From NCBI RefSeq assembly GCF_042660705.1, contig NZ_JBHSUQ010000001.1: 40,000 bases of DNA, one strand, 5' to 3'. Numbering within the stretch: the first letter of the stretch is position 1; each line of letters opens with the position of its first letter. The position numbers and the translations under genes are program-made. Positions 16,799 to 34,842 of this stretch are shown here, one piece after another. This stretch comes from Undibacterium arcticum (GTDB lineage: Bacteria > Pseudomonadota > Gammaproteobacteria > Burkholderiales > Burkholderiaceae_D). Under the pieces are notes generated by a model. That model saw nothing but the letters and a program-made list of their open reading frames with translations. It searched no databases and was not told the DNA's origin.

Positions 16799-16933
16799 GA
16801 CGCTAGTGGATTTTTTAAAACGTTGTTTTATAGGTGAAACGCGTTTGTCTTTATTCACCGCGGCAAGCGAAGGGCGAGCGGGTGAAATGTACACGGCGTG
16901 CGCCGTGCAATTCAATAAAAGGGGGGGAGTTTG

Positions 16934-19102: not shown

Positions 19103-20107
19103 TCAGTCGGCTTCGCGCAACAGTCGCATGCCCACAAGCGTATAACGCGTGTCCGGCGAATTCCAGTTGCGATAGGACGACCGCGCATAGAACGACCATG
19201 TGTGCCATGAGCCGCCACGACGCACGCGCACGGCTCCCGTCGCTGGCCCCTTTGGATCGTCGAGCGGCGAGTTCGCATAATAGTGCTCACCATACCAATC
19301 TGCGGTCCATGCCCATGCATTGCCGTGCATATCATAGAGTCCGAATGCATTCGGCGCAAAGCTGCCGACGGGCGACGTGAATGCAAAACCATCGTGTCCT
19401 GCAAGCGCATAGATTGCCCACTTTTCCCAATTTTTCTGCGCATCGGCATCGAATATATTGGCGGCTTTCAACAGAGATTGCGGATCGTCTCCGGTGTAAT
19501 AGCGCGTTCGGGTACCGGCGCGTGCTGAATATTCCCATTCCGCTTCAGTCGGTAGGCGATAGGTCTTCCCTTCCGTCTCGCTCAGCCATTTGCTCATCGC
19601 TACCGCATCGTTCCAGGTGACGTTCACTACCGGATGATCATCGCCTTGCTGAAATCCGGGATTGCGCCATGAGTATTTCGGGTTACGTCCTTCAAATGCA
19701 TCGCCGCGCACCGATTTGGCCGGGTCATAGTCGGGGTTGTAACCATAGCCACCGGTACCGTCGGTTTCGGATTCAGGCTTGTAGCCTGACGCTTCCAGGA
19801 ATCGTCGGAACTGGCCGACGGTGACATGGTGCTGTCCGAGATAGAACGCACGCGTGATGCGCACCTTGTGTACCGGTGCTTCGTCGTCAAGTTCCAGGAA
19901 ACGCGCTCGCTCGTATTGTGGATAGGACTTGGCGAGGGAATCGGGCGACTCATCACTGCCCATCATGAATTCGCCGGCGGGAACCAACACGAACTTCATG
20001 CCGACCGAGTTCTCGATTTGTGTCGGTAATGTTGCGGCCGGTCCGATTGACCAGGCTGATGAAGCCATCAGCGACGTGAAAAGGAGAAGCGTTGTTCGTA
20101 GCTGCAT
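19103..20107 (-). CDS. secreted formylglycine-generating-enzyme (SUMF1/FGE-sulfatase) domain protein, TagR-like
   Basis: Signal peptide MQLRTTLLLFTSLMASSAWS. Motifs HPVVNVTWNDA, RLPTEAEWEYSARAG, GLYDMHGNAWAWTADWY, RVRRGGSW. Confidence 0.85.
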   Translation of the reverse strand: MQLRTTLLLFTSLMASSAWSIGPAATLPTQIENSVGMKFVLVPAGEFMMGSDESPDSLAKSYPQYERARFLELDDEAPVHKVRITRAFYLGQHHVTVGQFRRFLEASGYKPESETDGTGGYGYNPDYDPAKSVRGDAFEGRNPKYSWRNPGFQQGDDHPVVNVTWNDAVAMSKWLSETEGKTYRLPTEAEWEYSARAGTRTRYYTGDDPQSLLKAANIFDADAQKNWEKWAIYALAGHDGFAFTSPVGSFAPNAFGLYDMHGNAWAWTADWYGEHYYANSPLDDPKGPATGAVRVRRGGSWHTWSFYARSSYRNWNSPDTRYTLVGMRLLREAD

Positions 20108-20429
20108 AGTGCCTCAAAAATGGTGAAGCTGCGCCTCTTAGGCCTCCCGCCAATTGCCGCCAACCGAACGGCCTCCAGCTTGAATTTCCGACCACAGCTT
20201 GTGTTTCCCTTGCGTTCCATGGGACACTTCTTTCAGAGCTAGTATGGCTCTTTTAGTGTGTCCACCAAACGTGGGCAAGATCAAAACGACCCATTAGAGA
20301 CATTCGCATTTCCCGCAAGCGGACGCTCAACGTTCGACATGAGACGGAGACAACGGCGGAACGCCGTCGTCTCTTAGTTCCATGGAGGGGTTAGGCTTCT
20401 TTTTACCTGCTCCATTTTTCATTTCCGAC

Positions 20430-21035
20430 TCAACGTTGATTACACAATATTGATGCGGTCTTTTCGCTACTTTTATTCTGCGAAGCGCATGGATACTGCG
20501 TGTGGACTGTTGATTTGTTATTTTGCTTTTTTGCCGGCCGGTTTGGCCGCCGCTTTTTTTTCGCCTGTTTGAAAACCGGCCCCCACAAAGGATGCTGTTT
20601 TTCACCGGCGTCCAGATCGAAGCTCGGATCAAGCTTCAAGGCTTTGTCGAATTGTTGGCGGCATAGCGTCATGCGTGTGGTCACACAATAACTGAAAGCC
20701 ATGGTTTTTAGTGCCGTCAGCTTCGTGCTCTTGTCAGCCGACCGGCTATCGGCGGGTAAGGAGAGTTTCTGGATCGCGCCGTTGAAATCGCCATTGTCGT
20801 ACAAAGTGAGGCCTTCTTTCAGTGAACTGTTCACTGCGGCCGGAACAACAATAGTTGCCACAGTCGGCGCAGGTGCCACCCTCGGTATCGTCGTCGGAGT
20901 GGAATTGTTGGCAACTGACTTCGGAGCCGGTTCGGCATTGTGGCGCATCTCTGCACAGCCTATCAAAGCGAAACACAGGATGACACATTGAGCAAAACCC
21001 AGGTTTGTCAGATTGGATGGCATGGTTGCTGTCAT
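20430..21035 (-). CDS. lipoprotein, TssQ-like; the C-terminal tail as assembled is probably out of frame, with a likely true stop at 20518
   Basis: Lipobox FALIGC. TPR-like core. Motif ...KTMAFSYCV...C..QFDKALKLDPSF...HPLWGPVF. Reading the T8 run (20554-20561) as 9 gives ...FKQAKKKAAAKPAGKKAK* ending at 20518. The ATG overlaps the reconstructed kinase stop (ATGA). Confidence 0.55.
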   Translation of the reverse strand: MTATMPSNLTNLGFAQCVILCFALIGCAEMRHNAEPAPKSVANNSTPTTIPRVAPAPTVATIVVPAAVNSSLKEGLTLYDNGDFNGAIQKLSLPADSRSADKSTKLTALKTMAFSYCVTTRMTLCRQQFDKALKLDPSFDLDAGEKQHPLWGPVFKQAKKKRRPNRPAKKQNNKSTVHTQYPCASQNKSSEKTASILCNQR

Positions 21036-22636
21036 TGCGATTTGTTGCCGTTGAAATCGTGTTCGAGCGTGGCCGGCTCGTTGTTGCTGACACGAATCTC
21101 TGTGACGTAGTCGGGGAAGGCGGGATTCACGATCCTAACCTTATATTTGCCCTCGGGCAGCGCGAGTTTCTTAATCGGTGGGCTTACTCCCTTTTCGACG
21201 CCGTTTTACATATACAACACCCCATGGCCTGACGCTGAGTTTGACATTGATGGCCTGCGCTGCAGCTTGGGTTGCCACATGCGCCGCGCTGGCAGCAGCG
21301 GTAGTTGTTACTGTACTTGCAACAGTACTTGCCACGGTTTTTTTCTGTCGGCAGTTTGTCTTGGGCTGCTCGCCGTTGCGCTGGTCGTTCCGCTGGCAGG
21401 GATGGTATGCAGATCGTCGGCCGATACCGTCGGTGCATTACTCGTGTTGGTGATCTCTGAAGCGGGAGTTGCTGCAACCAGCGGTGCCGGTGGATGGTCG
21501 ATGATAACTTGCTGATCCCTGCTACCCGGCGCAAATTTTGCAATAGCGACCAGGGTCAGTAGCGCCGCCGCAGCCACCGGCAGGGCGATTTTCCAACGCT
21601 TCCACCAGACCGTAGCGCCGGCAACTTCGACTTTCTTTTCGTCAGTTTCTAGAAGAGCAGAATTGATTAGAGGCGGCGCCGGTGAATAGGAAACCGCACC
21701 GGCCTTGACCCCGAGCAGGATACGAAATTCGGCGATGGTTTTCGGCCTTTGCTCCGGCAAAACTCTGAGACCGACATTGATCGCATCGAGGAAGGATTCG
21801 CTGTAAGCCGGGTAGTTGGCAGTGCTCAGATTTTCTATCGGATCCTTGATCATGCGCGCCACCGAGCTTGGCGGTGCCTTTTTCGCGATCAAGCTGTAAA
21901 TCACTGCGGACAAGGCGTAGATATCGGTCCATGGTCCCTGTGCCATGCTTTCGTCGTCGGCGTATTGCTCAACCGGGGCAAAGCGCGGTTTCAGGATCAC
22001 CGTCAGTGATTGCGGCATACCGCTGATGACTTGGCGCGCAGCGCCAAAATCCAGCAAAACCGGTGCGCCGTTTTTCTGGATCATGATGTTTTCCGGCGAA
22101 ATATCGCGATGCAGAACTTGCGCCTTGTAGAGCAAATCCAGCCCGGACAAAATCGACTGCAGCATTTTCTTTAACCAGGATTCGGTGATCAGCTCGGGTC
22201 GGTGTTCGGCCAGATGTTGCAAGGTTTGACCCTGGTAATACTGCATCGCCATGTAGGCGGTTTTGTTCTCTTCCCAAAAACGATACACCTTGACCAGTGC
22301 CGGATAATCGAATTGTGCCAGCAGGCGCGCCTCGTTGATATAGCTTTTCAGGCCGGTATCGAAAGCTTCCAGATGTTTGGCTGCGCGTACCAGGACGGTG
22401 TTGTGATGGCCGCGCGCGGCCAACGACATTGGCATGTACTCTTTGATGGCGACCGTGCGCTGCAGGCTGTGATCGAAAGCCATATAGACGATGCCGAAAC
22501 CACCTTCGCCAATCACGCCGGTGATTTCAAAATCGGACAGGCGCGTGCCGATGGGCAGGCAATTGGACGAGCCGCTTTTGCCGGGCAGCGGGCGAACTTT
22601 GTCTTCGGGGCTCGTGCTCATATCGTTACTTGGCAT
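21032..22636 (-). CDS. Hanks-type Ser/Thr protein kinase (PpkA-like): kinase domain, one TM helix, low-complexity linker, small PEGA-like periplasmic domain; two frameshifts in the 3' part as assembled
   Basis: GEGGFG, VAIKEY, HRDISPEN, DFGAAR, and TM helix WKIALPVAAAALLTLVAIA in ORF 21308-22636. Correcting the T7 run 21338-21344 and the T4 run 21204-21207 extends it through ...INVKLSVRPWGVVYVNGVEKGVSPPIKKLALPEGKYKVRIVNPAFPDYVTEIRVSNNEPATLEHDFNGNKSQ* to TGA 21032-21034. Confidence 0.8.
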
Positions 22637-23502
22637 TATTGCGCTTTGCTATTGGGAGATTGCGGCATCTGGTCAATCCAGATCGCAAATGCCGTCGTAT
22701 TATCGCGTACTGAAGTCGATTGGCCCTGATTGGCGCGGTGGTCGGCAATCCCTTGCATACGGCTCAGCCAGTCTTGTGCTGAACTCGCTTGCGTCAGCGC
22801 CTGCTCCATTTCGTCTTCAAGAACCCATTCCCACAAACCGTCACTGCAGAGCAGGAACGCATCGCCGGCCGCCAGCTCTTGCATCGTGCTGATGCAAGGG
22901 GTGTAATCGGTTTCGGCACCAATCGCGGCAATCAACACATGTCGATGCGGATGGATGCGCGATTGCTCGGCACCGCAATAACCGGCATCGATATATTGCT
23001 GCACCAAGCTGTGATCCTGACTCATCGCTTGAATTCTTTGCTGCCGGAAAAAATAAATGCGGCTATCGCCCAGATGCGCCCACAGCGCGGCGCCCCGCTG
23101 CGTATCGATCAGCAAGCTGACGACGGTGGTACTCATTTCGCGCAATTGCTGGTCGCTGTCTTGCGCTCGCGCCACGCTCTGGCTGGCGGCGTTCAAATAT
23201 GCGGATAACTTCTCTACGCTGAAAGCGGAATCGGCGGCAAACGCAGTGCTGATCGCCTTGATCGCAACTGCGGCAGCGATTTCACCACCCTTGTGTCCGC
23301 CTGCGCCATCGGCCACCAGAAAGCAATGCAGACCCTCATTGTGCAAACTGTCCAGTGCATCCTGATTACTGTCGCGGCCGCCGATCTGGCACATTTGTGC
23401 GGCATCGATCAGCCAACGCGTTTGCAACGCCCGGGCCATCGACTCACCCGCTACCGCTGCAGTTAAGTCATTTGCCAATGCATTTGCAAATTCGCCGCCC
23501 AT
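22636..23502 (-). CDS. PP2C-family Ser/Thr phosphatase (PppA-like)
   Basis: RDSNQDA, VADGAGGH, GDSR, CSDGL, and a late DN motif. The stop overlaps the kinase start (TAATG at 22634-22638). Confidence 0.85.
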   Translation of the reverse strand: MGGEFANALANDLTAAVAGESMARALQTRWLIDAAQMCQIGGRDSNQDALDSLHNEGLHCFLVADGAGGHKGGEIAAAVAIKAISTAFAADSAFSVEKLSAYLNAASQSVARAQDSDQQLREMSTTVVSLLIDTQRGAALWAHLGDSRIYFFRQQRIQAMSQDHSLVQQYIDAGYCGAEQSRIHPHRHVLIAAIGAETDYTPCISTMQELAAGDAFLLCSDGLWEWVLEDEMEQALTQASSAQDWLSRMQGIADHRANQGQSTSVRDNTTAFAIWIDQMPQSPNSKAQ

Positions 23503-23514
23503 GATTATCTTTCC

Positions 23515-24291
23515 TCAGCCTTGACCACCAGTTCGGACTTCAAAGAGTCGAACGGCGATTGCTCTTCGCAACGCGCGATTTCTTTCGTAGGCGTTCAGGA
23601 AAGCGTTGCCTATAGCCGGTTGTTCGTGATGTATGCCTTCCTTGCGGATTTGCCGGAACCTCACACCGTAGGCATCCCACATCTGGGCCTTGTGCCTGGA
23701 TGGGAACCATTTATCCATGCCAATTGGCTCCGGCACATGATCGCTGATATGGCGTGGATGAAAGCGATCCATCGCATCGCGCACACCGGCGCTAAAACCG
23801 GCAAGCATCGCTTTTTGATGCGCATACAAATCGCCGTAAGCCTCTTGCATCGCTTCCACCGGCTCCATGAAACCCGGCATTTTTTTGCGCAGCATCTGCA
23901 ATATGATGGTGTCGCTATCTTGTAAAAATTTCAATGGATTGTTGTTGCGCTTAACGACCACCGTCACATCGGCCTGCACTGCGCGCTTGACCATGGAACG
24001 GCTGGACAGCAAATTGTGCGTGCCGCGTATCGAGACCGATAGCAACTTGCCCAACATCTCCATCAATTCCGGCGTGAGTTTGGAACCAATCCCCCGTCCG
24101 GCCGGATCTTGCGCAATTCCCGCACCGCGCATAAATGCATCAAGCAATTCCTGATGAGCAGGGTCTTGACTGGCGATGTTGTTAACGTCGGCTCTCGGGT
24201 TCGGTTCGAACGAATGTTGATCTGACATCGGCGAGGCTCCTGATTGACGGTCATTACTTTGATGTGAGACGGTTTTGAGAGAGGGAATCAT
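23515..24291 (-). CDS. TagH/Fha1 C-terminal-domain-like protein that lacks the FHA domain
   Basis: ELLDAFMRGAGI, ...VVVKRNNNPLKF..., EAMQEAYGDLYAHQKAM, RFHPRHI, W..Y, and FLNAYE follow, from memory, the conserved pattern of the C-terminal half of T6SS FHA proteins. No FHA signature is present. The best start may be ATG 24228 (AGGAG 8 nt upstream). Confidence 0.55.
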   Translation of the reverse strand: MIPSLKTVSHQSNDRQSGASPMSDQHSFEPNPRADVNNIASQDPAHQELLDAFMRGAGIAQDPAGRGIGSKLTPELMEMLGKLLSVSIRGTHNLLSSRSMVKRAVQADVTVVVKRNNNPLKFLQDSDTIILQMLRKKMPGFMEPVEAMQEAYGDLYAHQKAMLAGFSAGVRDAMDRFHPRHISDHVPEPIGMDKWFPSRHKAQMWDAYGVRFRQIRKEGIHHEQPAIGNAFLNAYERNRALRRAIAVRLFEVRTGGQG

Positions 24292-24403
24292 CCTGACACA
24301 CTAGCTTAAATCATGCCATGCTGCAACATTCCGTGGGGCAAGCACTACAGTCCGACAGTTTTGAGTTATTTAGCAGGCTGCTGAAATGCTCCCAAAGCGG
24401 GCT

Positions 24404-24548
24404 AATGTCGTTCAGTTAAGGCATAACTACCAATTAGTGTCATTCCCGCGGAGGCGGGAATCCAGTGTCGTACGCACGCAAGCCACTGGATCCCCGCCTG
24501 TGCGGGGGCGACAAATTGGGGGGAATTGGCCCTTAACTGAACGGCATT
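24404..24548. repeat. MITE-like 145-bp element with 18-bp terminal inverted repeats and two internal hairpins
   Basis: AATGTCGTTCAGTTAAGG (24404-24421) against CCTTAACTGAACGGCATT (24531-24548), 17 of 18 complementary. Internal ATTCCCGC-GGAG-GCGGGAAT (24442-24461) and CCCCGC-CTGT-GCGGGG (24492-24507). Translations give the junk peptides ...IPASAGMT / SFPRRRES... typical of such repeats. Confidence 0.6.
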
Positions 24549-24769
24549 ACCCCATGCGGGCGGATTGCCGTGTTCGCAATGTTTGGTTTCACCCGGCACG
24601 TTCGCATCTTGAGTTTTTCGCCCATGGCGGGTCTGTTTTTAGCGATTCGGGGTTGATTTCTCCGCATTGCTCACTCCTCACGCCGCCTGTAGCCGTATTT
24701 GCCCCCAGAGAGCGCATTAGATCAAACCCAACAGAGGGCGGAAGTGGTCGAGCAATTCGGTGATACGAC

Positions 24770-25555
24770 TCATTTCTGCACAAAATGCACCGTCAGTGTG
24801 CCTAGGTCGCCATATTGAATGGCGATGTCTTCTCCTGCCGGCAGGTCAAAGCTCCCGGCATACGACCCTGTGATCACGGCTTGACCGGTTTGCAACCCCC
24901 GGCCTTTGCTGCGCAAAAACTCCGCCAGCCAATACAGTGGCGCGCGTGGATCGGCACTCGGATGGTGGCCCTCAAGTTGGGTTGCCTCGCCAGTTGCATG
25001 GGTGATCGTTATCGTCATGTCGCTGGCGGCGCTTGCTGGTCCGGCATCCACCTGCCGGCCGATGAACAGGCCCTGATTGAGCAAGCTATCCGCCAGATTT
25101 TCAGCAAAACTGGCGTCGGCAGCATCGCTGTAACGGCTGTCGATCAGCTCGAGCGCGAGGTGGGTACGCGCTATCGCGGCATCGACCTCGGCCGGCGTGT
25201 AGGGTAGGTCGCGCACGGGCAGGTCACGACCGAGGATGAAGGCGAGTTCCGGCTCCACCCGCGCCTGACCGGCGCGGACCCACACCGCGCATGGTGCGCT
25301 AGTGTGGACGGTGCTGGCATAGATAGGCGCCAAGACCAAGCGCCCGGCAGCGGGCAAGCCGCACTTCCATGCAGCGATGCCATCGCCGAGTTGCTCGCTG
25401 ACGGCGGCTTGTATGGCCAATGCAGCGTCAAGATTGGATGGCCGACAGGACTCCGGCAGGCGAGGCCCTTGCTCGCCCGACCTGCGGCGCACCACCAGGA
25501 TGGTTGCGGCAGTTGAAGCGACATGGTCGGGTTGATGATTCAGACGGTATCCCAT
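24770..25555 (-). CDS. 2-keto-4-pentenoate hydratase / FAH-family hydratase (MhpD-like)
   Basis: 261 aa with core-like high G+C. Overall pattern (...AIQAAV..., EPELAFILG, ...ALELIDSR..., VITGSY...) matches the MhpD/XylJ hydratase family. Confidence 0.7.
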   Translation of the reverse strand: MGYRLNHQPDHVASTAATILVVRRRSGEQGPRLPESCRPSNLDAALAIQAAVSEQLGDGIAAWKCGLPAAGRLVLAPIYASTVHTSAPCAVWVRAGQARVEPELAFILGRDLPVRDLPYTPAEVDAAIARTHLALELIDSRYSDAADASFAENLADSLLNQGLFIGRQVDAGPASAASDMTITITHATGEATQLEGHHPSADPRAPLYWLAEFLRSKGRGLQTGQAVITGSYAGSFDLPAGEDIAIQYGDLGTLTVHFVQK

Positions 25556-26372
25556 GTCTTTCTCGTTCTGATATAGGAGTCGTCATTGTAGAAAGGAGCA
25601 AACACTTCGCTGAAGAATGGAATGTCCTCACTCCCGGTTTGCATTGCTGTGTATTGAAGAGAGGACAGTAACTCAACCCAATAGCGGATGACTTGGAGTA
25701 CATATAGTTGGCGAAAAGGGGCAACGGCAGTCTGCATTCCGGTTCTACGGCTTGCATCTTCAACGTCTGTGATTTCGTCGCCGGTCTCAGACGTATGTCT
25801 GACCATGGCGTGCGGGGCGAGCATCGCGGCGATGGCGGTAGCGTTGCCATCGATGGCTTCCTTTTTGTTCCTCGATACGCGTGTCGCGTATAGCGGTATG
25901 TCTACTTGCGTGAACCATGACGCAATGGGATCACTTTGCCGTTTCGCGCCAACAATCAGATCAATGTTGGAATAGCGATCACCCTGCGCAAACTCTGCCA
26001 GGATTCTTAGAATGGCTTGATGGATGGGGTCATCGAGTTTGCGCAAAAAAAACTGCATGGATATCGACCGCTTCGAAGCTACCACCAGTGACTTCTCGTA
26101 GATGACACCAATCTTGTGTCCGATTTCGTTTTTTTCATGTAGTTGAAATCCGGGAACTGGCCGTTGTGATCAATGAAATGATCGAGCATAAGGCAGAGCT
26201 TTCCGATTCGCTCAAGGCCAGTAGACAGGCTTGTGAATGCTTGGAAATAAACACCCTTGGCTGCGTAGTTGGCGTTTCTAATTTGCGTAGCGCCTGAGCC
26301 AAGCATCTCCTTTGTGAATTGTGCCTCCTTGATCAGAGCATTGAAGGTCTCAGTAAACATGTACGTCGCCAT
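25540..26372 (-). pseudogene. hypothetical protein (about 275 aa once joined), frameshifted in a T7 run as assembled
   Basis: ORFs 26079-26372 and 25540-26085 join at T7 26129-26135 to read ...DFNYMKKNEIGHKIGVIYEKSLVVASKR... Low G+C. No family recognised; KNEIGH faintly resembles a HEPN-type xNxxxH motif. Confidence 0.5.
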
Positions 26373-26471
26373 TGGAAGGTTGAGGGGGCTTACATAGAAC
26401 TGAGCGGCTGGCCGCTCGGAACAAAAGCAAAAACTGACGGCGCGGCCCGGCCAGTCCGATCAACCACCATG

Positions 26472-27197
26472 TCAGAAGACATTCTTCGTAAGCCACTCGG
26501 CTCCTTGGATGAACTCTTCAACTTGCTCCTTGGTCGGTTCGGCGTCCTTCTTGTGCGAACATAGATTACGAAGGTCGGCAAGGAACGATATCTTACGCCA
26601 CGCGGGTATGTCGATAACCGAAGCAGATTTGAGAGGGTCATTCAAGTCCGCATTGGTCGGGTTCTTCTTACCAACAGTGACGCCATGACTTGATGCTACT
26701 TTCTGTAGGTGTCCCTCGATTACAACGCCCATGAGCGCTCCCGCGGCCCGAAGTCTCACCTTAGCCAATTGCCGCGCTATCACGATCTCGCTGTCCTGCA
26801 ACTCGGCGTACAGCTCGCCTTCAATGTTTGCCACAACGGAATCAATTCGCTCAGCGATTGCCTTAAACAGCGTGAGTTGATTAAAGAAGCACCTCAACGC
26901 TTGGTTTCTGCTGTCGAAATTTGGGTAACCTGATGGTATGACGTTTTTGAAAAAGTCCTGAATAACGTACGAGCCGTACCCGAGAGATTTACGTTTCGGA
27001 TCGATCTCATAGTAATTTCTGAACTCGGCGTATCGATCAGGCGCAAGCGTTGCAACGGCTTTTAATGCCTTCGTATACCAACGTTGGTAGTCGTATTGAA
27101 ACTGTTTATCCTGGTTATTCTGGAAGGCTTCACCTAGCACCGCGCCCTCTGCGTAAATGGCATCGATTTCTTTGCGGATTAGAGCTCGCTTCGACAT
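26472..27197 (-). CDS. HEPN-domain-like protein (putative RNase/abortive-infection type)
   Basis: Canonical Rx4H motif with the conserved Asn near the C-terminus (FLADLRNLCSHKKDAEPTKEQVEEFI). The rest is predicted all-helical by eye. Low G+C. Confidence 0.5.
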   Translation of the reverse strand: MSKRALIRKEIDAIYAEGAVLGEAFQNNQDKQFQYDYQRWYTKALKAVATLAPDRYAEFRNYYEIDPKRKSLGYGSYVIQDFFKNVIPSGYPNFDSRNQALRCFFNQLTLFKAIAERIDSVVANIEGELYAELQDSEIVIARQLAKVRLRAAGALMGVVIEGHLQKVASSHGVTVGKKNPTNADLNDPLKSASVIDIPAWRKISFLADLRNLCSHKKDAEPTKEQVEEFIQGAEWLTKNVF

Positions 27198-27333
27198 ATA
27201 TCCTCTAACGAATAGCGTTTATCCGCCGCCCCGGAAACGCGAAAATAAAATCCGCGAAATACCGGCGGCGGACACCCGACAGAGCGAAGCGAGGAAGCTC
27301 ATCGTCCGTTTACAACGCGTGGAGCCGACACCT

Positions 27334-27830
27334 TCAATCTCGACCTTTGCCGGCAACATTGTTTTCTACGACAGGGGTCATTTTTCCAACTTCCCCACGC
27401 ATGTCCACGCCGGTTAAACTAACGAAGAGGTTCCCTAAGAATGAAAGAACAAATTCCTGCGGCGTTGCCTCAGCATTCAATATGACTGAATGAATATTTG
27501 CTGACGCCGCCACTTTCTGAGCACCCTCTTGCAATCCCAAGGGGGAAACCATGAACCCTCCCGCAGCACCTGTATCCTGAATGCGAAATGCGAGCGCACC
27601 AACGGCTTCTTGCTTGATTCTTGAAGTCGTATAACGCCGACACTCGACTATCACAAATGCCTCCGACCCGCTCTGGATGCCCTTCGCATCCAACTCCCAT
27701 TCTGCCCCTGAGAGACCGGGAATAGATTGTTTCGCTTCAACTGCCGAAAGGCCAAGTGCCCCCTAAGACGGCCAAGGATTTCAGCGGCGACCTCTTCATA
27801 CGTTTGCCACTTCTTTGGTGAATCTGCCAT
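27334..27830 (-). pseudogene. Mrr-cat / PD-(D/E)xK restriction-endonuclease-like protein, frameshifted in a C5 run as assembled
   Basis: GGAGG RBS before ATG 27830 (MADSPKKWQTYEEVAAEILGRLRG). Joins at C5 27769-27773 to ...AEWELDAKG...AFVIVECRRYTTSRIKQEAVGALAFRIQDTGAAGGFMVSPLGLQEGAQKVA..., the D...ExK-like core and layout of Mrr-type nucleases. Confidence 0.6.
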
Positions 27831-27920
27831 CGTCTGCCTCCGATTCTGTCGGCCAACTTTGTTACAGTGTCCAACGATCGCCAAATGGTACCTGAACTGG
27901 TGACTAACTCCACCAGATAA

Positions 27921-27947
27921 CAAAAAGGCCAATCCGAAGATTGGCCT
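27921..27947 (-). terminator. Rho-independent terminator of tRNA-Pro
   Basis: On the minus strand, AGGCCAATC-TTCG-GATTGGCCT (27926-27947) is followed by TTTTTG, about 17 nt after the tRNA 3' end. Confidence 0.8.
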
Positions 27948-27963
27948 AAGTGTTTGATTTAAT

Positions 27964-28040
27964 TGGTCGGGACGGTGTGATTCGAACACACGACCCCTTG
28001 CACCCCATGCAAGTACGCTACCAGGCTGCGCTACGCCCCG
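27964..28040 (-). tRNA. tRNA-Pro (anticodon GGG)
   Basis: The reverse complement reads CGGGGCGTAGCGCAGCCTGGTAGCGTACTTGCATGGGGTGCAAGGGGTCGTGTGTTCGAATCACACCGTCCCGACCA. It has a 7-bp acceptor stem, D and T arms (GTTCGAATC), anticodon loop AT-GGG-GT, and an encoded CCA. Confidence 0.95.
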
Positions 28041-28323
28041 ACGAGCTAATAATTATAGCAGTAGCGACCGTCGATTTGGGCGGTAAACTTGTGCTGAATG
28101 GCAATTTTTCTCCAGTGCCAAGCTAAAGTCGCCTGCGTGTTACACCTGAATTATCCGGTGCTTTGCTAAAGGGCATAAAACCGGGAAAATGGCGCGATCG
28201 GTTTGCCGGGCGGTCGGACTGCATGTAGCCGGGCTCACGGCGCGGCGGCCGCACGGGCAATTTCTAAGATTCCACTCCACTTCACCAACGGCAGCGCCTG
28301 CCGCGCACTGCGAGAAAATTTTC

Positions 28324-29448
28324 ATGACAATTAAAATCAGCCAAAACTTTGATGCCGGTGCCATCGAGATCCAGTGTGCCGAGAGTGCCAGCAATATTGA
28401 ATTGAATCTGCGCAAGGATTCGCATGCCGATATCGCACAGTGGTTTTATTTCCGCCTCCAGGGTGCTCGCGGACAAGCCTGCACGATGCGTTTTCTGAAC
28501 GCGGCGCAGGCGACTTATCCGAAGGGGTGGGTCACGTATCAGGCGGCCGCCAGTTACGACCGCGAGAACTGGTTCCGCGTGCCGACCGCCTTCGATGGCA
28601 AAGTGATGACCATCACCCATACGCCCGAGCGCGACAGCGTGTATTACGCCTACTTCGAGCCGTACTCGTGGGAGCGCCATCTGCGCCTGCTGGCGCGGGC
28701 CGAGGAATCACCTCTGGCGCGGGTGCAGGACCTGGGCAGCACGGTCGATGGGCGTGATATGAATGTGGTGGTGGTGGGCGACCCGGCCGCGAACAAGAAA
28801 ATCTGGGTCATCGCGCGCCAGCATCCGGGCGAGACCATGGCCGAATGGTATGTCGAAGGCATGCTTGAGGCGTTGCTGGACCGCGCCAATCCGGTCGCGC
28901 GCCGGCTGCTGGAGCAGGCGGTGTTCTATATCGTGCCGAACATGAATCCGGATGGCTCGGTGCGCGGCAATCTGCGCACCAACGCAGCTGGCGCCAACCT
29001 GAATCGCGAGTGGATGGCGCCGAGCCTGGCGACCAGCCCTGAGGTGTTCGTGGTCAAGCACAAGATGCATGAAACTGGTTGCGACCTGTTTCTCGACATC
29101 CACGGCGACGAGGCCTTGCCGTATGTGTTTGTGGCCGGCAGTGAGATGCTGGCAGGCTTCAGCGCACAACAGGCGGCCGCGCAGCAGGGGTTTATTGATG
29201 ATTACAAGCAGGCCAATCCGGACTTCCAGGACAAGGTTGGCTATGCGGCCAGCAAGTACAACGAGGACTTGCTGAAACTGGCATCAAAATATGTCGGCCA
29301 CACCTTCCAGTGCGTGTCGTTGACGCTGGAAATGCCGTTCAAGGACAACGTCAACCTGCCCGATGCGCAGGTCGGCTGGGACGGCGCTCGCAGTGCGGTG
29401 CTGGGTGCGGCGGTGTTGCAGCCGATCTTGCGCGCGATCGGGAAATAA
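28324..29448 (+). CDS. M14-family zinc carboxypeptidase-like protein
   Basis: HPGETMAEW (HxxE zinc site), NMNPDG, NLNREW, DIHGDE. Start taken at MTIKISQNF (ATG 28324); the ORF track's longer N-terminus is Arg/Ala-rich. Confidence 0.8.
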   Translation: MTIKISQNFDAGAIEIQCAESASNIELNLRKDSHADIAQWFYFRLQGARGQACTMRFLNAAQATYPKGWVTYQAAASYDRENWFRVPTAFDGKVMTITHTPERDSVYYAYFEPYSWERHLRLLARAEESPLARVQDLGSTVDGRDMNVVVVGDPAANKKIWVIARQHPGETMAEWYVEGMLEALLDRANPVARRLLEQAVFYIVPNMNPDGSVRGNLRTNAAGANLNREWMAPSLATSPEVFVVKHKMHETGCDLFLDIHGDEALPYVFVAGSEMLAGFSAQQAAAQQGFIDDYKQANPDFQDKVGYAASKYNEDLLKLASKYVGHTFQCVSLTLEMPFKDNVNLPDAQVGWDGARSAVLGAAVLQPILRAIGK

Positions 29449-29463
29449 GCTGGAGGAGGGCGG

Positions 29464-29928
29464 ATGGGTGTCGAGATCGAGCGCAAATTTCTGCTGCGCG
29501 GTGACGGGTGGCGGGGGCTGGGGCAGCGTGTGTTGCTGCGCCAGGGCTATCTGTCATCCGATCCGGCGCGCGTGGTGCGGGTCAGGATCGAGGGCGAGTC
29601 GGCCATGTTGACGATCAAGGGCAGAAATACCGGCGCCAGCCGCGGCGAATGGGAATATCCGATTCCGCTGGCTGATGCCCAGGTTTTTCTGGACACGCTG
29701 TGTCAGCAGCCGATCATTGAAAAGTACCGGAGTCGCATCGCGCATGCTGGCATGGTCTGGGAGGTCGATGAATTTCTGGGGGCGAATGCCGGTCTGGTGC
29801 TGGCAGAGATCGAATTGACGGCGGAGGATCAGCCGTTTGCGCGGCCGGACTGGGTCGGTGACGAAGTGACGGACGACCCGCGTTATTACAACGCGAATCT
29901 GATCGCGCGCCCGTTTTCGGTGTGGTGA
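29464..29928 (+). CDS. CYTH-domain protein (triphosphate tunnel metalloenzyme)
   Basis: N-terminal EIERKFLL signature, 154 aa, GGAGGAGGG RBS. Confidence 0.85.
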   Translation: MGVEIERKFLLRGDGWRGLGQRVLLRQGYLSSDPARVVRVRIEGESAMLTIKGRNTGASRGEWEYPIPLADAQVFLDTLCQQPIIEKYRSRIAHAGMVWEVDEFLGANAGLVLAEIELTAEDQPFARPDWVGDEVTDDPRYYNANLIARPFSVW

Positions 29929-30104
29929 TCGCAGGTTTGATCGGGCTGTCCCGATTGCTGGCTTGATTGTGGGGTGACAGCGTTGCGCGCTGCGGCTCAC
30001 TTACTCTTGGTGCGCAATACGCCACTGGGCCCCAGCGTTCGCTGGGGCGACGCTATTACCGGTGGTAGGTAGCACGATCCACGATTGCACCGCGCCGCAT
30101 ACAA

Positions 30105-31490
30105 TCAATGGAAATGCTGCGTGCCCGGGGGCGCATCTTCCGGCATCTCCGGGTGCACAAGTTCGCCGTCGGCATCTGCGAATAGCGGAGCGCCGCAGTC
30201 ATCGCAGAACTCCATCGGGAAGCGTTCCTGATGGTTCTTGATATGCACGACACCGGCCTCGTGTAACAACCCGAGGATTTCTTCGATCGGTGTGGCGGGT
30301 ATTGCGGTCGTGGCGGCGCCGGGCGTTGCAGCGCCGACGGTTGCCATCGCGCGCAATTCTTCCTCGGCATCTTCCTGCCCATACAGCGGCCAAACGATGC
30401 CATACGCGACTGTATCGCTTTGGCGCAAAGTGAAGCCGATCCGGTATTCCTCGATCCCCTCCTGCGTTGCCGGATCGCCGAAACCACCGATGATGGCGCG
30501 CAAATCGACCGGCGCAACGCTCAGGGTATGGGTCAGGAAATGCACTGCTGCGCGAATGGACGCCGGGCGGATCTGCTTGTCGGCCTCGCGACAGGCGACG
30601 TAGTAGGCCTCCGGCAACAACAGTTCGACACCGCAACCGGGCAGTAACTTTGCCAGATTGGGTGTGGCCTGGTCGCGCCATTGCTGCAGTGCGTGATCGC
30701 GCTCGGTGTTGGCATCGAGCGGATTGGTGACGCCCTGCCAACGGAACAACGGCGTGCCGGCGGGCGCGGCGATCACTGCCAGCAGATAGCGGGTATCGGC
30801 CAGGAAGGGGACGGTTTGTGCCGGATGGGCGCTGGCGCGCACTACTCCGTCTTTCAGTGCCGTCTGTGCCATCCGCTGTGTCAGCACAAAGGCTTCGGCA
30901 TGGTTGTGCGGCAGCTGGTCGATCGAAAACAGGTGCGGCGCCATCGCCAGTCGGGTCCCGGGCGCCAGCAGATGCGCCGACAAATGGGCCGACAATGTGT
31001 GCAACATGTCGGTCGGGATGGCGCCCGACGCGATCGAAAAGCGGGTCCATGCCAGCACCGGTGCGGCGATCAGCAGCGCGTCATAGGCCGCGCCGTCGTG
31101 TTCGATGCTGCAGGATTCACTGACGGCTTCGGCCGATTCCATCAACGCATCGTAGGCGTCCAGATCGGTCGCGAACAGATGGTCCAGCGTATGGTCGATC
31201 GCATCCTGATGATTAGCCTTCAGCAGCTTGTGCACGGCGGCGTCGAGGCTGCGCTCCCAGTTGCGTTCTTCCAGGCGGCTGGCGGCCTGGATCGTGGCCT
31301 GTGCGAGTGCAGCCAGACGCTGGCTATCGGCAGAAAGTTTTGGAGAAGCAGTTTGGATGGACGACGCATGGTGGGGAAATGGTGGCAGGGGATGGCTATT
31401 GTAGTGGATTTGCAAACGGGAGCGGTGATTGGGTGCCGCTGGCAATGTCGCACGGTCGCCAATTCGGCGCCTGGTGATGCGTGGCTGCAC
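30105..31490 (-). CDS. DUF2863-family protein; the true start is probably ATG 31369 with a frameshift at T4 31338-31341
   Basis: Long conserved-looking ORF ending ...CDDCGAPLF...HPEMPEDAPPGTQHFH. The first 40 residues of the listed ORF are Arg-rich junk. The out-of-frame ATG at 31369 gives MRRPSKLLLQ, which joins to KLSADSQRLAALAQ... if the run is one base longer. Confidence 0.65.
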   Translation of the reverse strand: MQPRITRRRIGDRATLPAAPNHRSRLQIHYNSHPLPPFPHHASSIQTASPKLSADSQRLAALAQATIQAASRLEERNWERSLDAAVHKLLKANHQDAIDHTLDHLFATDLDAYDALMESAEAVSESCSIEHDGAAYDALLIAAPVLAWTRFSIASGAIPTDMLHTLSAHLSAHLLAPGTRLAMAPHLFSIDQLPHNHAEAFVLTQRMAQTALKDGVVRASAHPAQTVPFLADTRYLLAVIAAPAGTPLFRWQGVTNPLDANTERDHALQQWRDQATPNLAKLLPGCGVELLLPEAYYVACREADKQIRPASIRAAVHFLTHTLSVAPVDLRAIIGGFGDPATQEGIEEYRIGFTLRQSDTVAYGIVWPLYGQEDAEEELRAMATVGAATPGAATTAIPATPIEEILGLLHEAGVVHIKNHQERFPMEFCDDCGAPLFADADGELVHPEMPEDAPPGTQHFH

Positions 31491-31667
31491 CTCGGAACAC
31501 GATATTATTAGGGAGTATGTTAGGAAAATGCGCCAATCCCCTTGATTTTATTGCGAAGTTAAAAATACAGGGTATAGTATATTACGTTGTTGTATCGTGT
31601 ACTGTCTTGCACTATGCAGGTTCGCGGTGGTCTGGAAACGGCTATGCCAAGCTTGGCGGTACCCCGG

Positions 31668-31967
31668 CTAGTGCGGGGCGGGCTGCGCATCACGGCCGCG
31701 TCGAGAACCGATGATCGTGCCGGTGGTGCTCATCCGGATCGGCGCCGGCTTGCTACCGGGCTCAGTCGCCAACTGCGTGGTCGCGCTATCTGGCACCGGT
31801 GCATTCGGCAGTACGCCAGACCTCGCTGCACCGGCCTCAGCGGGATTGCCGGCCGCGTGGGTGTCGGCCGGGCTGGCTAGCTCGTCGCCGCGTTCATCGG
31901 TACCCAGCATGAAGTACAGCCATCCGGCCAGCGCCAGCAGCGCGACCACGACCATCGACGTGCGCAT
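31668..31967 (-). CDS. possible small membrane-anchored protein (99 aa)
   Basis: N-terminal TM helix (MVVVALLALAGWLYFML) and a GGGAG-like RBS. However, it starts only about 18 nt after the acnA terminator and the rest is low-complexity. Confidence 0.3.
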   Translation of the reverse strand: MRTSMVVVALLALAGWLYFMLGTDERGDELASPADTHAAGNPAEAGAARSGVLPNAPVPDSATTQLATEPGSKPAPIRMSTTGTIIGSRRGRDAQPAPH

Positions 31968-31984
31968 GTTGTTGCTCCCCCCGG

Positions 31985-32009
31985 AAAAAAACGCCGGACG
32001 AATCCGGCG
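31985..32009 (-). terminator. Rho-independent terminator downstream of acnA (potentially bidirectional)
   Basis: CGCCGGA-CGAA-TCCGGCG stem-loop (31992-32009). An A7 run on the plus strand (31985-31991) reads as T7 on the minus strand after the hairpin. A CTTTTGTTT tract lies on the other side. Confidence 0.75.
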
Positions 32010-32124
32010 CTTTTGTTTCGATTGCCCTTGCGATTGCCCTTCTCAGTAGACCGCCCACCGTCGCGTTGGTTCGCCAGGTGGACGAACCAGGCCACGGCGG
32101 CAGATCACCCGAGCAGCGCGATCA

Positions 32125-34842
32125 TCAGGCGGCGAGCAGCTGACGCAGCACGAACGGCAGAATCCCGCCGTGCTTGTAGTAGTCGACTTCGATCGGGGTA
32201 TCGATGCGCAGCTTGAGCTTGACTTCCTGACTTTGGCCGTTGCTGCGATGAATCACCAGCGTGACGTCCTGCTGCGGCTTGATGTCACCCTCGATGCCTT
32301 TCAGGTCGAAGGTTTCATCACCCTTGATGCCAAGCGTCTCGACGCTGTCGTCGCCAAGAAATTGCAGCGGCAACACGCCCATGCCGACCAGATTGGAGCG
32401 GTGGATGCGTTCGAACGAACGGGTGATCACCGCCTTGACGCCCAGCAACTGGGTACCCTTGGCGGCCCAGTCGCGCGACGAGCCGGTACCGTACTCTTCG
32501 CCGCCGAATACCATGGTCGGCACGCCATCGTTGACGTAGCGCATCGCGGCGTCATAGATCGACATTTCTTCGCCGGACGGCTGGTGGATCGTGATGCCGC
32601 CTTCGACGCTGGAGCCGTCGGCCGTCAGCGGGATCATGCGGTTCTTGATACGCACGTTGGCAAAGGTGCCGCGCATCATGATCTCGTGATTGCCGCGGCG
32701 CGAGCCGTAGGAGTTGAAGTCGGCCTTCAGCACGCCGTTTTCAGTCAGCCATTTACCGGCCGGGCTGGATTCCTTGATCGAACCGGCCGGCGAGATGTGG
32801 TCGGTGGTGATCGAATCGCCGAACACGCCCAGTGCGCGCGCAGCGACGATACCGGTGGCGGGTGGTTTCGGCTGCATCGTGAAGCCGTCAAAGAATGGCG
32901 GCTCGGCGATGTAGGTCGACGCTGGCCAGTTGTAGACCTGGCCCGAGACGCTGGTCACCTTTTCCCACAGCTTGCCCGGATCGCCTTTGACGTCCGCGTA
33001 GTTATCCTTGAAGGTCTTGGCATTCAACGCATGCTTCATCAGCTTGCCGATTTCCTTGCTGGTCGGCCAGATGTCGCCGAGGAAAATGTCCTTGCCCTTG
33101 ACGCGGCCCACCGGCTCGGTCATCAGATCCTTGGTCATGTTGCCGGCGATCGCATAGGCGACCACCAGCGGTGGCGATGCCAGGAAGTTGGAGCGGATGT
33201 TCGGATGGATACGCGCTTCGAAGTTGCGATTGCCCGACAGCACGGCCGAGGCCACGATGTCGTTCTTGGTGATCGCTTCATTCATCGCCGGCGTCAGGTC
33301 GCCGGCATTGCCGATACAGGTGGTGCAGCCGTAGGCGGTGACGCCGAAGCCGAGTTTCTCGAGGTAGGGCAGGAGACCCGCTGCTTCGAGGTACTCGGTC
33401 ACGACGCGCGATCCCGGCGCCAGCGAGGTCTTGATGTGCGGCGATACCTTGAGACCGGCTTCGACCGCTTTCTTGGCCAGCAGGCCGGCGGCCAGCATCA
33501 CACTCGGGTTGGAGGTGTTGGTGCAGGAGGTGATCGCGGCGATCAGGACGTCGCCGTTCCTGACCGAGACGCCATCGGCATTTTGGTAGACCGCATCGAG
33601 ATCTTCCGGCTTTTTGTTGAAGCCGTTTTCCGAGGTCGGCTTGGCGAACAGCTCGGCGAAATTGGCCTTGACGTGACCGATTTCAATCCGGTCCTGCGGA
33701 CGCTTCGGACCGGCCAGCGACGGTGCGACGCTGCCAAGGTCGAGTGCCACCACCTTGGTGTAATCGATGTCGCCCGATTTCGGGATGCCGAACAGCTTTT
33801 GCGCCTTGAAATAGGTTTCGAAGGCGGTGATTTCGGCCTTGCTGCGGCCGGTGCCCTTGAGGTAGTCGATGGTGGCTTCATCGACCGGGAAAAAGCCCAT
33901 GGTGGCGCCGTATTCCGGTGCCATGTTGGCGATCGTGGCGCGGTCGGTCAGCGACAACGATTCGGTGCCTTCACCGAAGAATTCAACGAACTTGCCGACT
34001 ACTTTTTCCTTGCGCAGCATTTCGGTGATCGTCAATACCAGATCGGTCGCGGTCACGCCTTCGCGCAACGCCCCGGTCAGGTTGACGCCGACCACGTCCG
34101 GTGTCAGGAAGTAGACCGGCTGACCCAGCATGCCGGCTTCGGCTTCGATGCCGCCGACGCCCCAGCCGACCACGCCGATACCGTTGATCATGGTGGTGTG
34201 CGAGTCGGTACCGACCAGCGTGTCAGGGTAGTAGATGTCGCCTTTCTTGGAGGCAGCCTTGTGCACGCCGCGCGCCAGGTATTCCAGATTGACCTGGTGC
34301 ACGATGCCGAAGCCCGGCGGCACGACGCCGAAGGTGTCAAACGCCTGCATGCCCCATTTCATGAACTGGTAGCGCTCGTTATTGCGCGAAAATTCCAGTT
34401 TCATGTTCAGGTCGAGCGCTTTTTTCTCGCGGAAATGGTCGATCTGGATCGAGTGGTCAACCACCAGATCGACCGGCACCAGCGGCTCGATATTTTTCGG
34501 GTTCTTACCCATTTTGGACGCAACATTGCGCATCGCCGCCAGATCCGCCAGCAGCGGCACCCCGGTGAAGTCCTGCAATACCACGCGCGCCACCACGAAC
34601 GGGATTTCATCGACGCGATCGGCGCACGGGCTCCAGTTCGCGAGCTGCCTGACATGCTCTTCGGTGACTTTCTTGCCGTCGCAATTGCGCAGTACCGATT
34701 CGAGCACGATACGGATCGACACCGGCAGGCGCGAGACGTTGACGCCTAGCGTTTTTTCCAGCGCGGGCAGCGAGTAGAACTTGCCCTTCCTGGTATCTGA
34801 AAGCTTGAAGTCCTTCAGTGTGTTCAATGTGTTGCGGGACAT
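32125..34842 (-). CDS. acnA: aconitate hydratase A
   Basis: 905 aa. Full-length match to the AcnA/IRP pattern (…[26 protein letters not shown]…, [16 protein letters not shown], …SRDWAAKG…). Confidence 0.95.

Follow-up and report, generated by a model that had tools for sequence, protein, structure and literature searches.

The stretch of DNA analysed here (the window) comprises 40,000 nucleotides of Undibacterium arcticum and carries, at positions 25540–27830, three co-oriented minus-strand ORFs (g1, g2, and g3) following a tRNA-Pro(GGG) gene [Table 1]. The G+C content is 0.50 over 25.5–28 kb, compared with 0.59–0.63 on both flanks, and the low-G+C islet is about 2.4 kb in length. A first-pass annotation of the same DNA had described three co-oriented minus-strand genes of low G+C behind a tRNA-Pro terminator; the ORFs, the tRNA, the hairpin, and the low G+C content were all recovered in our analysis. 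The tRNA gene, the sole match in an Rfam scan (Rfam has no attC family), bounds the islet on its upstream side and lies outside the gene cassettes discussed below.

Table 1. Features of the islet and its upstream edge, in window coordinates; attC remnants are putative assignments.
Feature	Position	Strand	Description
tRNA-Pro(GGG)	27964..28040	-	ARAGORN; Rfam tRNA 55.6 bits
Terminator-like hairpin of the tRNA gene	27926..27947	-	9-bp stem, then TTTTTGTT
GTTGGCC	27851..27857	-	R'-type junction core, 5' edge of g1 cassette; 20 nt before ATG
g1	27334..27830	-	165-aa Mrr_cat (PD-(D/E)xK-type) nuclease gene; frame broken at G5 run 27759-27763
GC-rich hairpin GTCCGCCGC ... GCGGCGGAT	27222..27272	-	g1-g2 spacer; DNA fold, z-score -1.3
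GTTAGAG	27203..27209	-	R'-type junction core, 5' edge of g2 cassette; homologue consensus cGTTAGAAGACAT, then ATG
g2	26472..27197	-	Intact, 241 aa; helical N-domain 1-~135 and C-terminal DUF4145-type HEPN ~141-241
Decayed attC (putative)	26387..26477	-	g2-g3 spacer; position and blastn homology
TTCTGAC	26471..26477	-	R''-like, over g2 stop codon; part of putative decayed g2-g3 attC
Dyad GACTGGC / GCCGTC, then T-tract TTTTTGCTTTTG	26422..26456	-	Inside putative decayed attC
L-box-like hairpin GAGCGGCCAGCCGCTC	26402..26417	-	Part of putative decayed attC; the hairpin called by the terminator scan
GTAAGCC	26387..26393	-	Degenerate R'-like, 5' junction of g3; part of putative decayed attC
g3	25540..26372	-	275-277-aa all-alpha protein, unnamed family; frame broken at A7 run 26129-26135

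The g1 ORF lies in two frames which are split at the G5 run, and one additional G yields 165 aa; the protein repaired in this way (G6) aligns without gaps with intact homologues of 160–186 aa (85% identity, 99% coverage). The earlier description of g1 as a nuclease of about 165 aa, similar to Mrr-cat and preceded by a GGAGG ribosome-binding site, holds, since the frame-repaired protein scored 24.2 bits against Pfam PF04471 (Mrr_cat; cutoff 21) and GGAGG is found 7–11 nt ahead of the ATG. Most of the 681 g1 homologues are 155–190 aa long. ELDAKG and VECRR are conserved, and all 16 sequences aligned share the D...E-x-[KR] core (D48, E63-C-R65), in which Arg takes the place of Lys. Passing the PF04471 threshold and having this core, g1 resembles Mrr-type (type IV) restriction endonucleases but differs from them in the replacement of the usual core Lys by Arg. 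A full Mrr protein is about 300 aa long with an N-terminal DNA-binding domain, and g1 is far shorter and without that domain. A PDB sequence search returned no relative of g1, which would be a small Mrr-type DNA endonuclease acting alone.

The g2 protein had been annotated as a 241-aa HEPN protein with the motif LRNLCSH, and several lines of evidence bear this out. The R, N, and H of this motif (R210-N-L-C-S-H215) are invariant in 121 of 121 sequences. The protein is named DUF4145 domain-containing in UniRef; its own score against Pfam PF13643 (DUF4145) is 12.4 bits, below the cutoff of 23.1, and 36 of 37 family members likewise match DUF4145 below threshold (profile positions 3–84 of 88, best E-value 1.6e-4). 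In the AlphaFold model (pLDDT 83.7), a four-helix HEPN fold is predicted, for which Foldseek repeatedly returned HEPN structures, all with weak E-values (0.45–4): 2hsb with a probability of 1.00 (TM 0.70, rmsd 3.0 over 115 columns), HepT, the HEPN toxin 7ae6, Csm6, and AbiV. Searching PDB by sequence, with profiles as well as single sequences, found no relatives, and the N-terminal 135 residues of g2 match no family; this helical N-terminus lacks a Cys4 motif. The DUF4145 domain is an active RNase in RAZR (PMC13017515). g2 shares with RAZR / PD-T7-4, a zinc ribbon joined to a DUF4145 HEPN RNase (PMC13017515), the C-terminal DUF4145-type HEPN with conserved Arg and His and the one-protein layout of a non-catalytic N-terminal domain followed by HEPN, but lacks the Cys4 zinc ribbon and matches no PADLOC model at E<=1. 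A genuine ZnF+DUF4145 protein (196 aa, locus L003) could be aligned to g2 over about 44 residues, with an hhalign probability of 42%. By analogy with RAZR and the AbiV/AbiU2 cassettes, g2 may act as a HEPN RNase dimer whose N-terminal helical domain would keep the RNase inactive until a trigger arrives. The dN/dS of g2 is 0.086 against its nearest homologue, dS being saturated against all others, and GC3 ranges from 0.29 to 0.64 across hosts.

Frame-restored g3 (275–277 aa) shows 83–87% identity to intact homologues of 271–275 aa and has a dN/dS of 0.07 after frame repair. We found 776 homologues, and about 1070 clusters at 50% identity, nearly all of them stand-alone proteins of about 270 aa. 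The first-pass annotation had recognised no family for this protein of about 275 aa, and the same conclusion was reached here: there was no usable match in Pfam, PADLOC, NCBIfam, or PHROGs, PDB searches by sequence and profile found no relatives, and the AlphaFold model of the g3 homologue P0122 (pLDDT 88, pTM 0.87, all-alpha) has no Foldseek neighbour in PDB or BFVD. A relation between the g3 and g2 families was considered and rejected, as hhalign shows none. The annotation had also seen in KNEIGH a faintly HEPN-like motif; the motif is present, and across the wide family its His is conserved in 59 of 61 sequences and the basic residue in 58 of 61, but the fold of g3 has no supported assignment. 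Invariant residues are E16, E54, R55, K58, F126, and W151, and H85, R131, Y132, N134, R228, and D263 are near-invariant. The conserved [KR]x3-4H, ERxxK, and RYxN weakly suggest a divergent HEPN-like nuclease, and g3 would be a self-contained enzyme. Distant relatives of g3 lie at a prophage-host junction and next to a dGTPase gene on Klebsiella plasmids. We tentatively suggest that g3 might found a new, widespread family of one-protein immunity or toxin enzymes with an all-alpha fold lacking any solved or viral neighbour, a family that crosses phyla in integron cassettes and is also present on conjugative Klebsiella/E. coli plasmids and at the ends of prophages; its nuclease site, composed of these motifs, would then be HEPN-like but new or highly divergent. 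In an IMG/VR scan, g2 was found in only three contigs and g3 was absent; neither is primarily phage-borne. Where g2 does occur in phage contigs, it adjoins a second DUF4145-like gene.

The boundaries of the three genes were then compared with those of their homologues. Homology to the homologue cassettes stops at GTT-type junction cores, 5–20 nt upstream of each ATG, the blastn extents being 27339–27857 for g1, 26471–27210 for g2, and 25540–26376 (up to 26416) for g3. For g1, 27857 is the exact end of the homology to locus L029 (87.9% over 520 nt); L029 has GTTAGCC at this junction position, followed by the same leader, CCGACAGAAxCGGAGG. For g2, similarity among 14 loci is lost entirely 5' of the GTT of GTTAGAG, and homology to L014 and L008 ends at 27209–27210. 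For g3, homology to L023 runs to 26416, and 26387–26416 is the 3' half of the attC which precedes g3 in that locus. Two attC models (R1 and R2, filters off) found no significant site over 25.4–28.0 kb (best local score 4.5–5 bits), and an intact attC in the g1-g2 or g2-g3 spacer was rejected because neither folding nor the local model search was significant. Position and blastn homology point instead to decayed attC remnants in these spacers. The attC model also found nothing at the GC-rich hairpin of the g1-g2 spacer, which may be an L-box remnant of the attC of the g1 cassette. As for the g2-g3 spacer, the dyad and T-tract which had been proposed to separate transcription units do exist, but they lie where g2 homologues have their attC, and the terminator scan did not call the dyad, calling the neighbouring hairpin at 26417–26402. 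Since g2 homologues have an attC there and 26387–26416 matches an attC 3' half, the dyad is more plausibly what is left of a recombination site than a terminator in its own right.

At the homologue loci, attC sites were found beside relatives of all three genes. The flanks of g2 homologues show an R'' TTCTAAC overlapping the stop codon, L-box stems, a variable loop, and an R' GTTRRRY 55–65 nt downstream. The consensus structure of these flanks is 86.9% paired, against 17–58% in slid controls, with a covariation score of 0.34 which was reached in none of 500 shuffles. Covariance models, which derive from these flank sites, a narrow class of attC, and differ from the curated IntegronFinder model, placed an attC directly after the g2-homologue stop in 11 of 15 distinct loci, in each of these 11 starting within the stop codon (TTCTAAC). 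The same models located sites that follow or surround g3 homologues at 3 of 10 loci (on both sides in L023, and in L027 and the L033 series) and sites at both g1 loci, ending 21 nt before the gene in the L043 series and lying after the next ORF in L029. Every attC match at these loci is on the gene's own strand. Because 7 of the 10 close g3 loci are without attC, g3 has further means of spreading or persisting. Several homologue loci are arrays of multiple cassettes in which toxin-antitoxin genes abound. Elsewhere, g2 with its attC stands as a solo cassette between gyrB and exoD (L005), beside argG (L008), or beside ubiCA (L055); such solo g2 cassettes between housekeeping genes match the published SALIN/attG route (bioRxiv 10.1101/2022.09.11.507474). 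A tblastn search of the 40 kb with an approximate IntI1 query found no IntI-like sequence, and the intI remnants detected by it in L020 and L043–47 served as the positive control.

Considering these observations together, the islet is probably a decayed array of three unrelated integron-type gene cassettes rather than a three-gene system, and each gene probably serves by itself in defence or as a toxin of nuclease type. In other bacteria, each family travels singly, its ORF having no promoter and an attC behind it; copies occur in integron arrays, in integrase-less arrays, or singly between housekeeping genes. The proposed U. arcticum cassettes lie head to tail beside tRNA-Pro, each keeping a GTT-type core before its ORF, with attC sites decayed or lost and no integron integrase within 40 kb; they are probably no longer excisable. 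Formally, the islet is neither an integron nor a CALIN or SALIN (0 significant attC and no intI in 40 kb). It resembles CALINs (Cury 2016, PMC4889954) and SALIN/attG insertions (Loot et al., bioRxiv 10.1101/2022.09.11.507474) in its co-oriented, promoterless single ORFs of foreign composition, in the GTT junction core before each ORF, in having no integrase nearby, and in that homologues of its genes elsewhere are bounded by attC in arrays and single insertions; it differs from them (a CALIN having at least 2 attC) in that no attC of the islet is significant, and would be a decayed derivative.

The first-pass annotation had taken the trio for a candidate uncharacterised defence locus next to a tRNA and had proposed a PADLOC search and a test of whether the trio is conserved. 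That nuclease, HEPN protein, and partner form one joint anti-phage or abortive-infection system is suggested by their co-orientation, their tight spacing in a low-G+C islet beside a tRNA, and the nuclease-type domains of two of the three, but this reading is close to refuted. Relatives of g1, g2, and g3 did not co-occur in any of the other loci retrieved (15 for g2, 10 close and 3 distant for g3, 2 for g1), a small sample inspected over ±3–8 kb or over the whole contig where shorter; the sole locus with more than one of them is L028, a second assembly of the same organism. The closest relatives are likewise solo (g2 at 81–82% identity in L014 and L055, g3 at 83–87% in L011 and L054, g1 at 83% in L029), each family comes with cassette junctions and attC sites of its own, and PADLOC recognised no known defence family among the three proteins. 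Searches of NCBIfam and PHROGs with all three likewise produced nothing of use. An apparent sharing of one contig by P0021 and P0242 (both 5995 bp) was rejected as coincidence, L029 being without g2, and no remnants of the ORFs which accompany g1 in L029 were found in the window. A classical genomic island that a tyrosine integrase placed at the tRNA-Pro 3' end and that has since eroded would fit the adjoining tRNA, the atypical composition, and two possible pseudogenes among three genes. It is nevertheless very unlikely, given that the window has no integrase and that similarity to relatives is lost at the individual gene junctions and not at island ends. For a tRNA-proximal island there is neither an integrase nor a convincing tRNA-derived direct repeat; the one candidate, D3 (26530–26550), is 76% identical and within conserved g2 coding sequence, and was rejected as a chance match.

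The state of the islet and the role of its genes have to be weighed as well. The second assembly shows 0 mismatches to the window and 38 homopolymer-length differences in 10.4 kb; as the two differ at homopolymers only, the frameshifts in g1 and g3 may be sequencing errors, and they are either very recent or, more likely, such homopolymer errors. Conceivably, though less probably, the frameshifts are genuine, in which case g1 and g3 would be dead and the islet no more than inert debris in U. arcticum: neither assembly has an intact g1 (G5 in the window, G7 in L028), both have A7 in g3, and the attC sites are decayed. However, both lesions are single homopolymer slips in ORFs which are otherwise free of stops with dN/dS of about 0.07, the disagreeing assemblies bracket the in-frame length G6, and at least one further gene of the window, the FRG-domain gene, is likewise interrupted in a long homopolymer (T9), which points to assembly error. 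Judged from dN/dS of 0.07–0.09 and mostly saturated dS, the genes are old, constrained, and functional. It is also rather unlikely that the genes, while of cassette origin, serve as addiction or stabilisation toxins of arrays or in housekeeping-like accessory roles and not in phage defence. Arrays with g1 and g3 homologues are indeed full of PemK, HicAB, ParE/Phd, and BrnTA toxin-antitoxin pairs, PADLOC gave no matches, and g2 and g3 are 63–87% identical across phyla at dN/dS of about 0.07–0.09. Defence genes usually evolve faster than this, and a non-defence role would account for the unusually strong conservation. On the other hand, no antitoxin partner is conserved beside g2 or g3, whose neighbours differ at every locus; stand-alone DUF4145, AbiV, and AbiU2 HEPN proteins are experimentally antiviral; and relatives are found in phage accessory regions.

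On the preferred reading of three independent cassettes, each gene would be a self-contained one-protein nuclease-type immunity or toxin module. Single-gene defence systems, among them HEPN proteins of AbiV and AbiU2 type, are indeed known from integron cassettes. The phage-resistance integron cassettes called BRiCs (Kieffer et al. 10.1101/2024.07.02.601719; HEPN AbiU2 cassette 10.64898/2026.03.17.712381) are similarly compact one-gene cassettes spread by integrons and encode HEPN or other nuclease-type abortive-infection proteins. In the portions of these reports consulted, the g1, g2, and g3 families are not among the families reported; the cassettes of g1–g3 come from environmental chromosomal arrays and not from mobile class 1–5 integrons.

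These observations emphasize that a nuclease, a HEPN protein, and a gene of unknown family beside a tRNA can arise by chance adjacency of independently mobile cassettes, and that inspecting the flanks of homologues for attC junctions guards against inventing false multi-gene systems. Homopolymer lengths are unreliable in both U. arcticum assemblies, and apparent pseudogenes there should not be trusted as such. g2, in which a new N-terminal domain precedes a predicted DUF4145 HEPN RNase, is a candidate integron-borne immunity gene. In essence, g2 and g3, the latter of unknown fold, add two candidates to the integron-borne immunity genes, both of which are very widespread and very conserved.

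In the window, tRNA-Pro(GGG) and its terminator-like hairpin are followed by three co-oriented minus-strand ORFs, encoding an Mrr_cat nuclease (g1), a HEPN protein (g2) and a protein of an unnamed family (g3), in DNA of ~50% G+C as compared to 59-63% on both flanks, as the first-pass annotation had described. From our analysis of homologous loci, the description that best fits this islet is that of a three-cassette array that has decayed. DNA similarity of g1, g2 and g3 to their cassette-borne relatives stops at junction cores in the window.

Features of the islet and extents of DNA similarity to cassette-borne relatives
Feature	Coordinates	Strand	Remarks
tRNA-Pro(GGG)	27964-28040	minus	upstream of the g1-g3 ORFs
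Terminator-like hairpin of tRNA-Pro	27947-27926	minus	precedes the three co-oriented ORFs
g1	27334-27830	minus	GGAGG ribosome-binding site; split at G5 run 27759-27763
g1 homology	27339-27857	minus	GTTGGCC at 27857-27851; 20-nt leader common to locus L029
g2	26472-27197	minus	intact, 241 aa
g2 homology	26471-27210	minus	GTTAGAG at 27209-27203; TTCTGAC over stop codon
g3	25540-26372	minus	split at A7 run 26129-26135
g3 homology	25540-26376; to 26416 vs locus L023	minus	degenerate R'-like core GTAAGCC at 26393-26387

The flanks of g2 homologues have non-coding ends conserved across unrelated genomes, with cGTTAGAAGACAT directly 5' of the ATG, the stop codon inside TTCTAAC (reverse complement of GTTAGAA) followed by an imperfect dyad, and a second GTTRRRY 55-65 nt downstream. 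Judged from sequence, this anatomy is that of integron attC sites, whose R and L boxes come with unpaired spacers, a terminal structure of variable form and AAC/GTT triplets that are conserved (PMC4889954). When twelve sites were aligned with MAFFT, 6 of the 13 pairs in the consensus fold showed compensatory changes; in a 14-pair structure, 86.9% of cells pair versus 17-58% with partners slid, and the covariation score is 0.34 versus 0.18 when shuffled (0/500 shuffles reach 0.34). We built two covariance models, R1 and R2, the latter without any window sequence, and every match at a homologue locus was on the gene's own strand. In 11 of 15 g2 loci the stop codon is directly followed by an attC, and L001 and L020 are arrays because further attC sites lie upstream of the g2 homologue, which in L020 has attC on both sides (7932-7991, 8727-8790). 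The region 6237-9294 of L020, a gammaproteobacterial MAG, is a degraded integron in which an opposite-strand intI N-terminal remnant is followed by four co-oriented cassettes. For g3, attC sites flank the gene in L023 and follow it in L027 and in the L033 series, the last being an IS-interrupted five-attC array with many PemK/RHH pairs. For g1, the L043 series (an array that also carries HicAB, ParE/Phd, and BrnTA) has an attC whose end is 21 nt upstream of the gene, and one follows the ORF next to the homologue in L029; intI remnants adjoin the arrays of L020 and L043-47. The single cassettes located between housekeeping genes are consistent with the SALIN/attG route of insertion that has been published (bioRxiv 10.1101/2022.09.11.507474).

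Within the window, R1 and R2 found no significant attC in 25.4-28.0 kb (best local scores 4.5-5 bits), no attC was found 3' of g3, and tblastn with an IntI1 query found no IntI-like sequence within the 40 kb. The islet is therefore not a CALIN by definition. The g3 similarity extending to 26416 spans the 3' half of the attC preceding g3 in L023. A dyad and T-tract (26422-26456), previously taken to suggest separate transcription units, is indeed present, and its position is that of the attC L-box and loop in g2 homologues; from position we infer part of a decayed attC, the match itself not being significant. An attC-like site on the same strand as g1-g3 (20325-20396, minus; 20.7 bits, E ~0.012 with the model that excluded window sequences) is located 34 nt past the stop codon of a lipoprotein ORF (20430-21035), ahead of an FGE-sulfatase-like ORF (19103-20107), and may represent either another cassette junction or a hairpin that arose by chance. 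Immediately downstream of the islet, 21308-24291 (minus) encodes a 442-aa Ser/Thr kinase, a 288-aa PP2C phosphatase, and a T6SS_FHA_C-domain protein (Pfam labels as assigned in L028, another assembly of Undibacterium arcticum, the source of the window), a set resembling a module for post-translational regulation of type VI secretion (PpkA/PppA/Fha-like). The stretch 24292-24769 is devoid of genes and carries nested inverted repeats (24399-24421/24531-24553, 91% complementary; 24438-24474/24477-24513) suggestive of a structured repeat element, REP-type or otherwise.

The trio had been proposed as an uncharacterised three-gene defence locus, and its co-occurrence does not bear this out. Homologue loci (15 distinct for g2, 10 close and three distant for g3, two for g1), taken from genomes and metagenomes as well as IMG/VR, plasmids, and phages, were each searched by tblastn with the three proteins, and L028 alone contained more than one of them. 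Every nearest relative stands alone (g2 81-82%, g3 83-87%, g1 83% identity), with varying neighbours at every locus, e.g., g2 between gyrB and exoD, between argG and, further on, murB, or beside ubiCA, and g3 between corC (not adjacent) and eno or beside glmM-folP-ftsH. Homologues of g2 share 66-82% identity over a range that spans Cyanobacteria to Acidobacteriota, and those of g3 share 63-87% across phyla; the GC3 of g2 (0.29-0.64) varies with the host, dS is saturated for most pairs, and the nearest pairs have dN/dS of 0.07-0.09. These genes are old, under strong constraint, and functional, not recently transferred.

Are g1 and g3 then pseudogenes? With one G added, g1 encodes 165 aa that align gap-free to homologues of 160-186 aa (85% identity, 99% coverage), and repaired g3 is 83-87% identical to intact 271-275-aa proteins; since the homologues lack an extra Lys, A5 or A8 would restore its frame. 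Both ORFs are stop-free aside from the slips, with dN/dS ~0.07 versus relatives. Across the 10.4 kb aligned to window 22417-32776, L028 (GCA_042683345.1) has 0 substitutions and 38 indels in homopolymer length, its run being longer at 37 of 38 sites, and its gene calls are fragmented, with g2 and the T6SS FHA gene split. The g1 run is G5 in the window and G7 in L028 (in-frame length, G6), while the g3 run is A7 in both. An FRG-domain gene (18095-18670/18480-19013) changes frame at a T9 run (18531-18539) and a porin (16931-17560 and 17668-17997) near 17560, where there is no long homopolymer; the four broken genes all fall in that portion of the window where G+C is lower (16.9-27.8 kb). For g1 and g3, sequencing error seems a somewhat likelier cause than genuine pseudogenisation. 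In a Verrucomicrobiae MAG (L022, 5735-6464), a g2 homologue is also frameshift-split, at query residue 73 (two tblastn segments in different frames).

The earlier domain calls were largely right. Frame-repaired g1 passes the Pfam Mrr_cat threshold (24.2 bits vs 21). The g2 protein (100% identical to ACFQAT_11875) carries RNxxxH in its C-terminal 100 residues, invariant in 121/121 sequences; DUF4145, an established HEPN family (PMC3710099), matches 36 of 37 family members, all sub-threshold (best E-value 1.6e-4), and Foldseek with the AlphaFold model (pLDDT 83.7) repeatedly returned HEPN structures at weak E-values, i.e., 2hsb (probability 1.0, TM 0.70), HepT, 7ae6, Csm6, and AbiV. Its helical N-domain matched no family, and g2 no PADLOC model. 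In the single-protein defence system RAZR/PD-T7-4, DUF4145 is the active RNase domain (PMC13017515), but g2 is without RAZR's zinc ribbon. In L030 (8001-9396), an IMG/VR phage contig that encodes a portal and a large terminase, the gene after a g2 homologue specifies a 199-aa DUF4145-like protein whose N-terminal membrane helix with 'WP' signature and LRELRNQVAH match the membrane-anchored DUF4145 HEPN type of Anantharaman 2013; this phage accessory region thus has two HEPN genes in tandem.

For g3, we found no Pfam, NCBIfam, or PADLOC match, no useful PHROG match, no PDB relative by sequence, and no Foldseek neighbour in PDB or BFVD, though the all-alpha model is confident (pLDDT 88, pTM 0.87). 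At 50% identity the family forms ~1070 clusters, almost all of which are ~270 aa long and stand alone. Among members at 25-59% identity, E16, E54, R55, K58, F126, and W151 are invariant and H85, R131, Y132, N134, R228, and D263 near-invariant. KNEIGH, noted earlier as faintly HEPN-like, belongs to a family-wide [KR]-x3-4-H motif (basic residue 58/61, His 59/61); HEPN_AbiV touches only 2/61 members (E 0.004), and we take a HEPN relationship as a lead rather than a finding. Distant relatives (25-34% identity) occur on 133 plasmids (113 conjugative), mostly of Klebsiella, E. coli, and Salmonella, and at the prophage-host junction of three E. coli prophages, settings weakly compatible with an accessory immunity role. 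One such gene (25% identity, full length) on K. pneumoniae IncFIA/IncR plasmid OW967852.1 (L051, 3649-5825) is adjacent to, and divergent from, a dGTP triphosphohydrolase-like gene. In Pandoraea pulmonicola (L003/L004, 1-6825), an integrase-bounded island that looks like a defence island includes a g3 homologue, a RAZR-like zinc-ribbon+DUF4145 protein (196 aa) overlapping a 276-aa partner, and a TIR-DnaB_C fusion (460 aa).

Integron cassettes are by now known carriers of many single-gene phage-defence systems, including AbiV- and AbiU2-type HEPN proteins. We propose that g2 would act as a HEPN RNase dimer switched on by a trigger, the N-domain serving as its sensor or autoinhibitor, RAZR-like in logic though not a RAZR family member, and that g1 would be a minimal Mrr-type DNase. 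That the cassette genes act instead as addiction toxins is a live alternative. On this reading, the islet represents a known type of element that has degraded, and two families in it merit testing singly.
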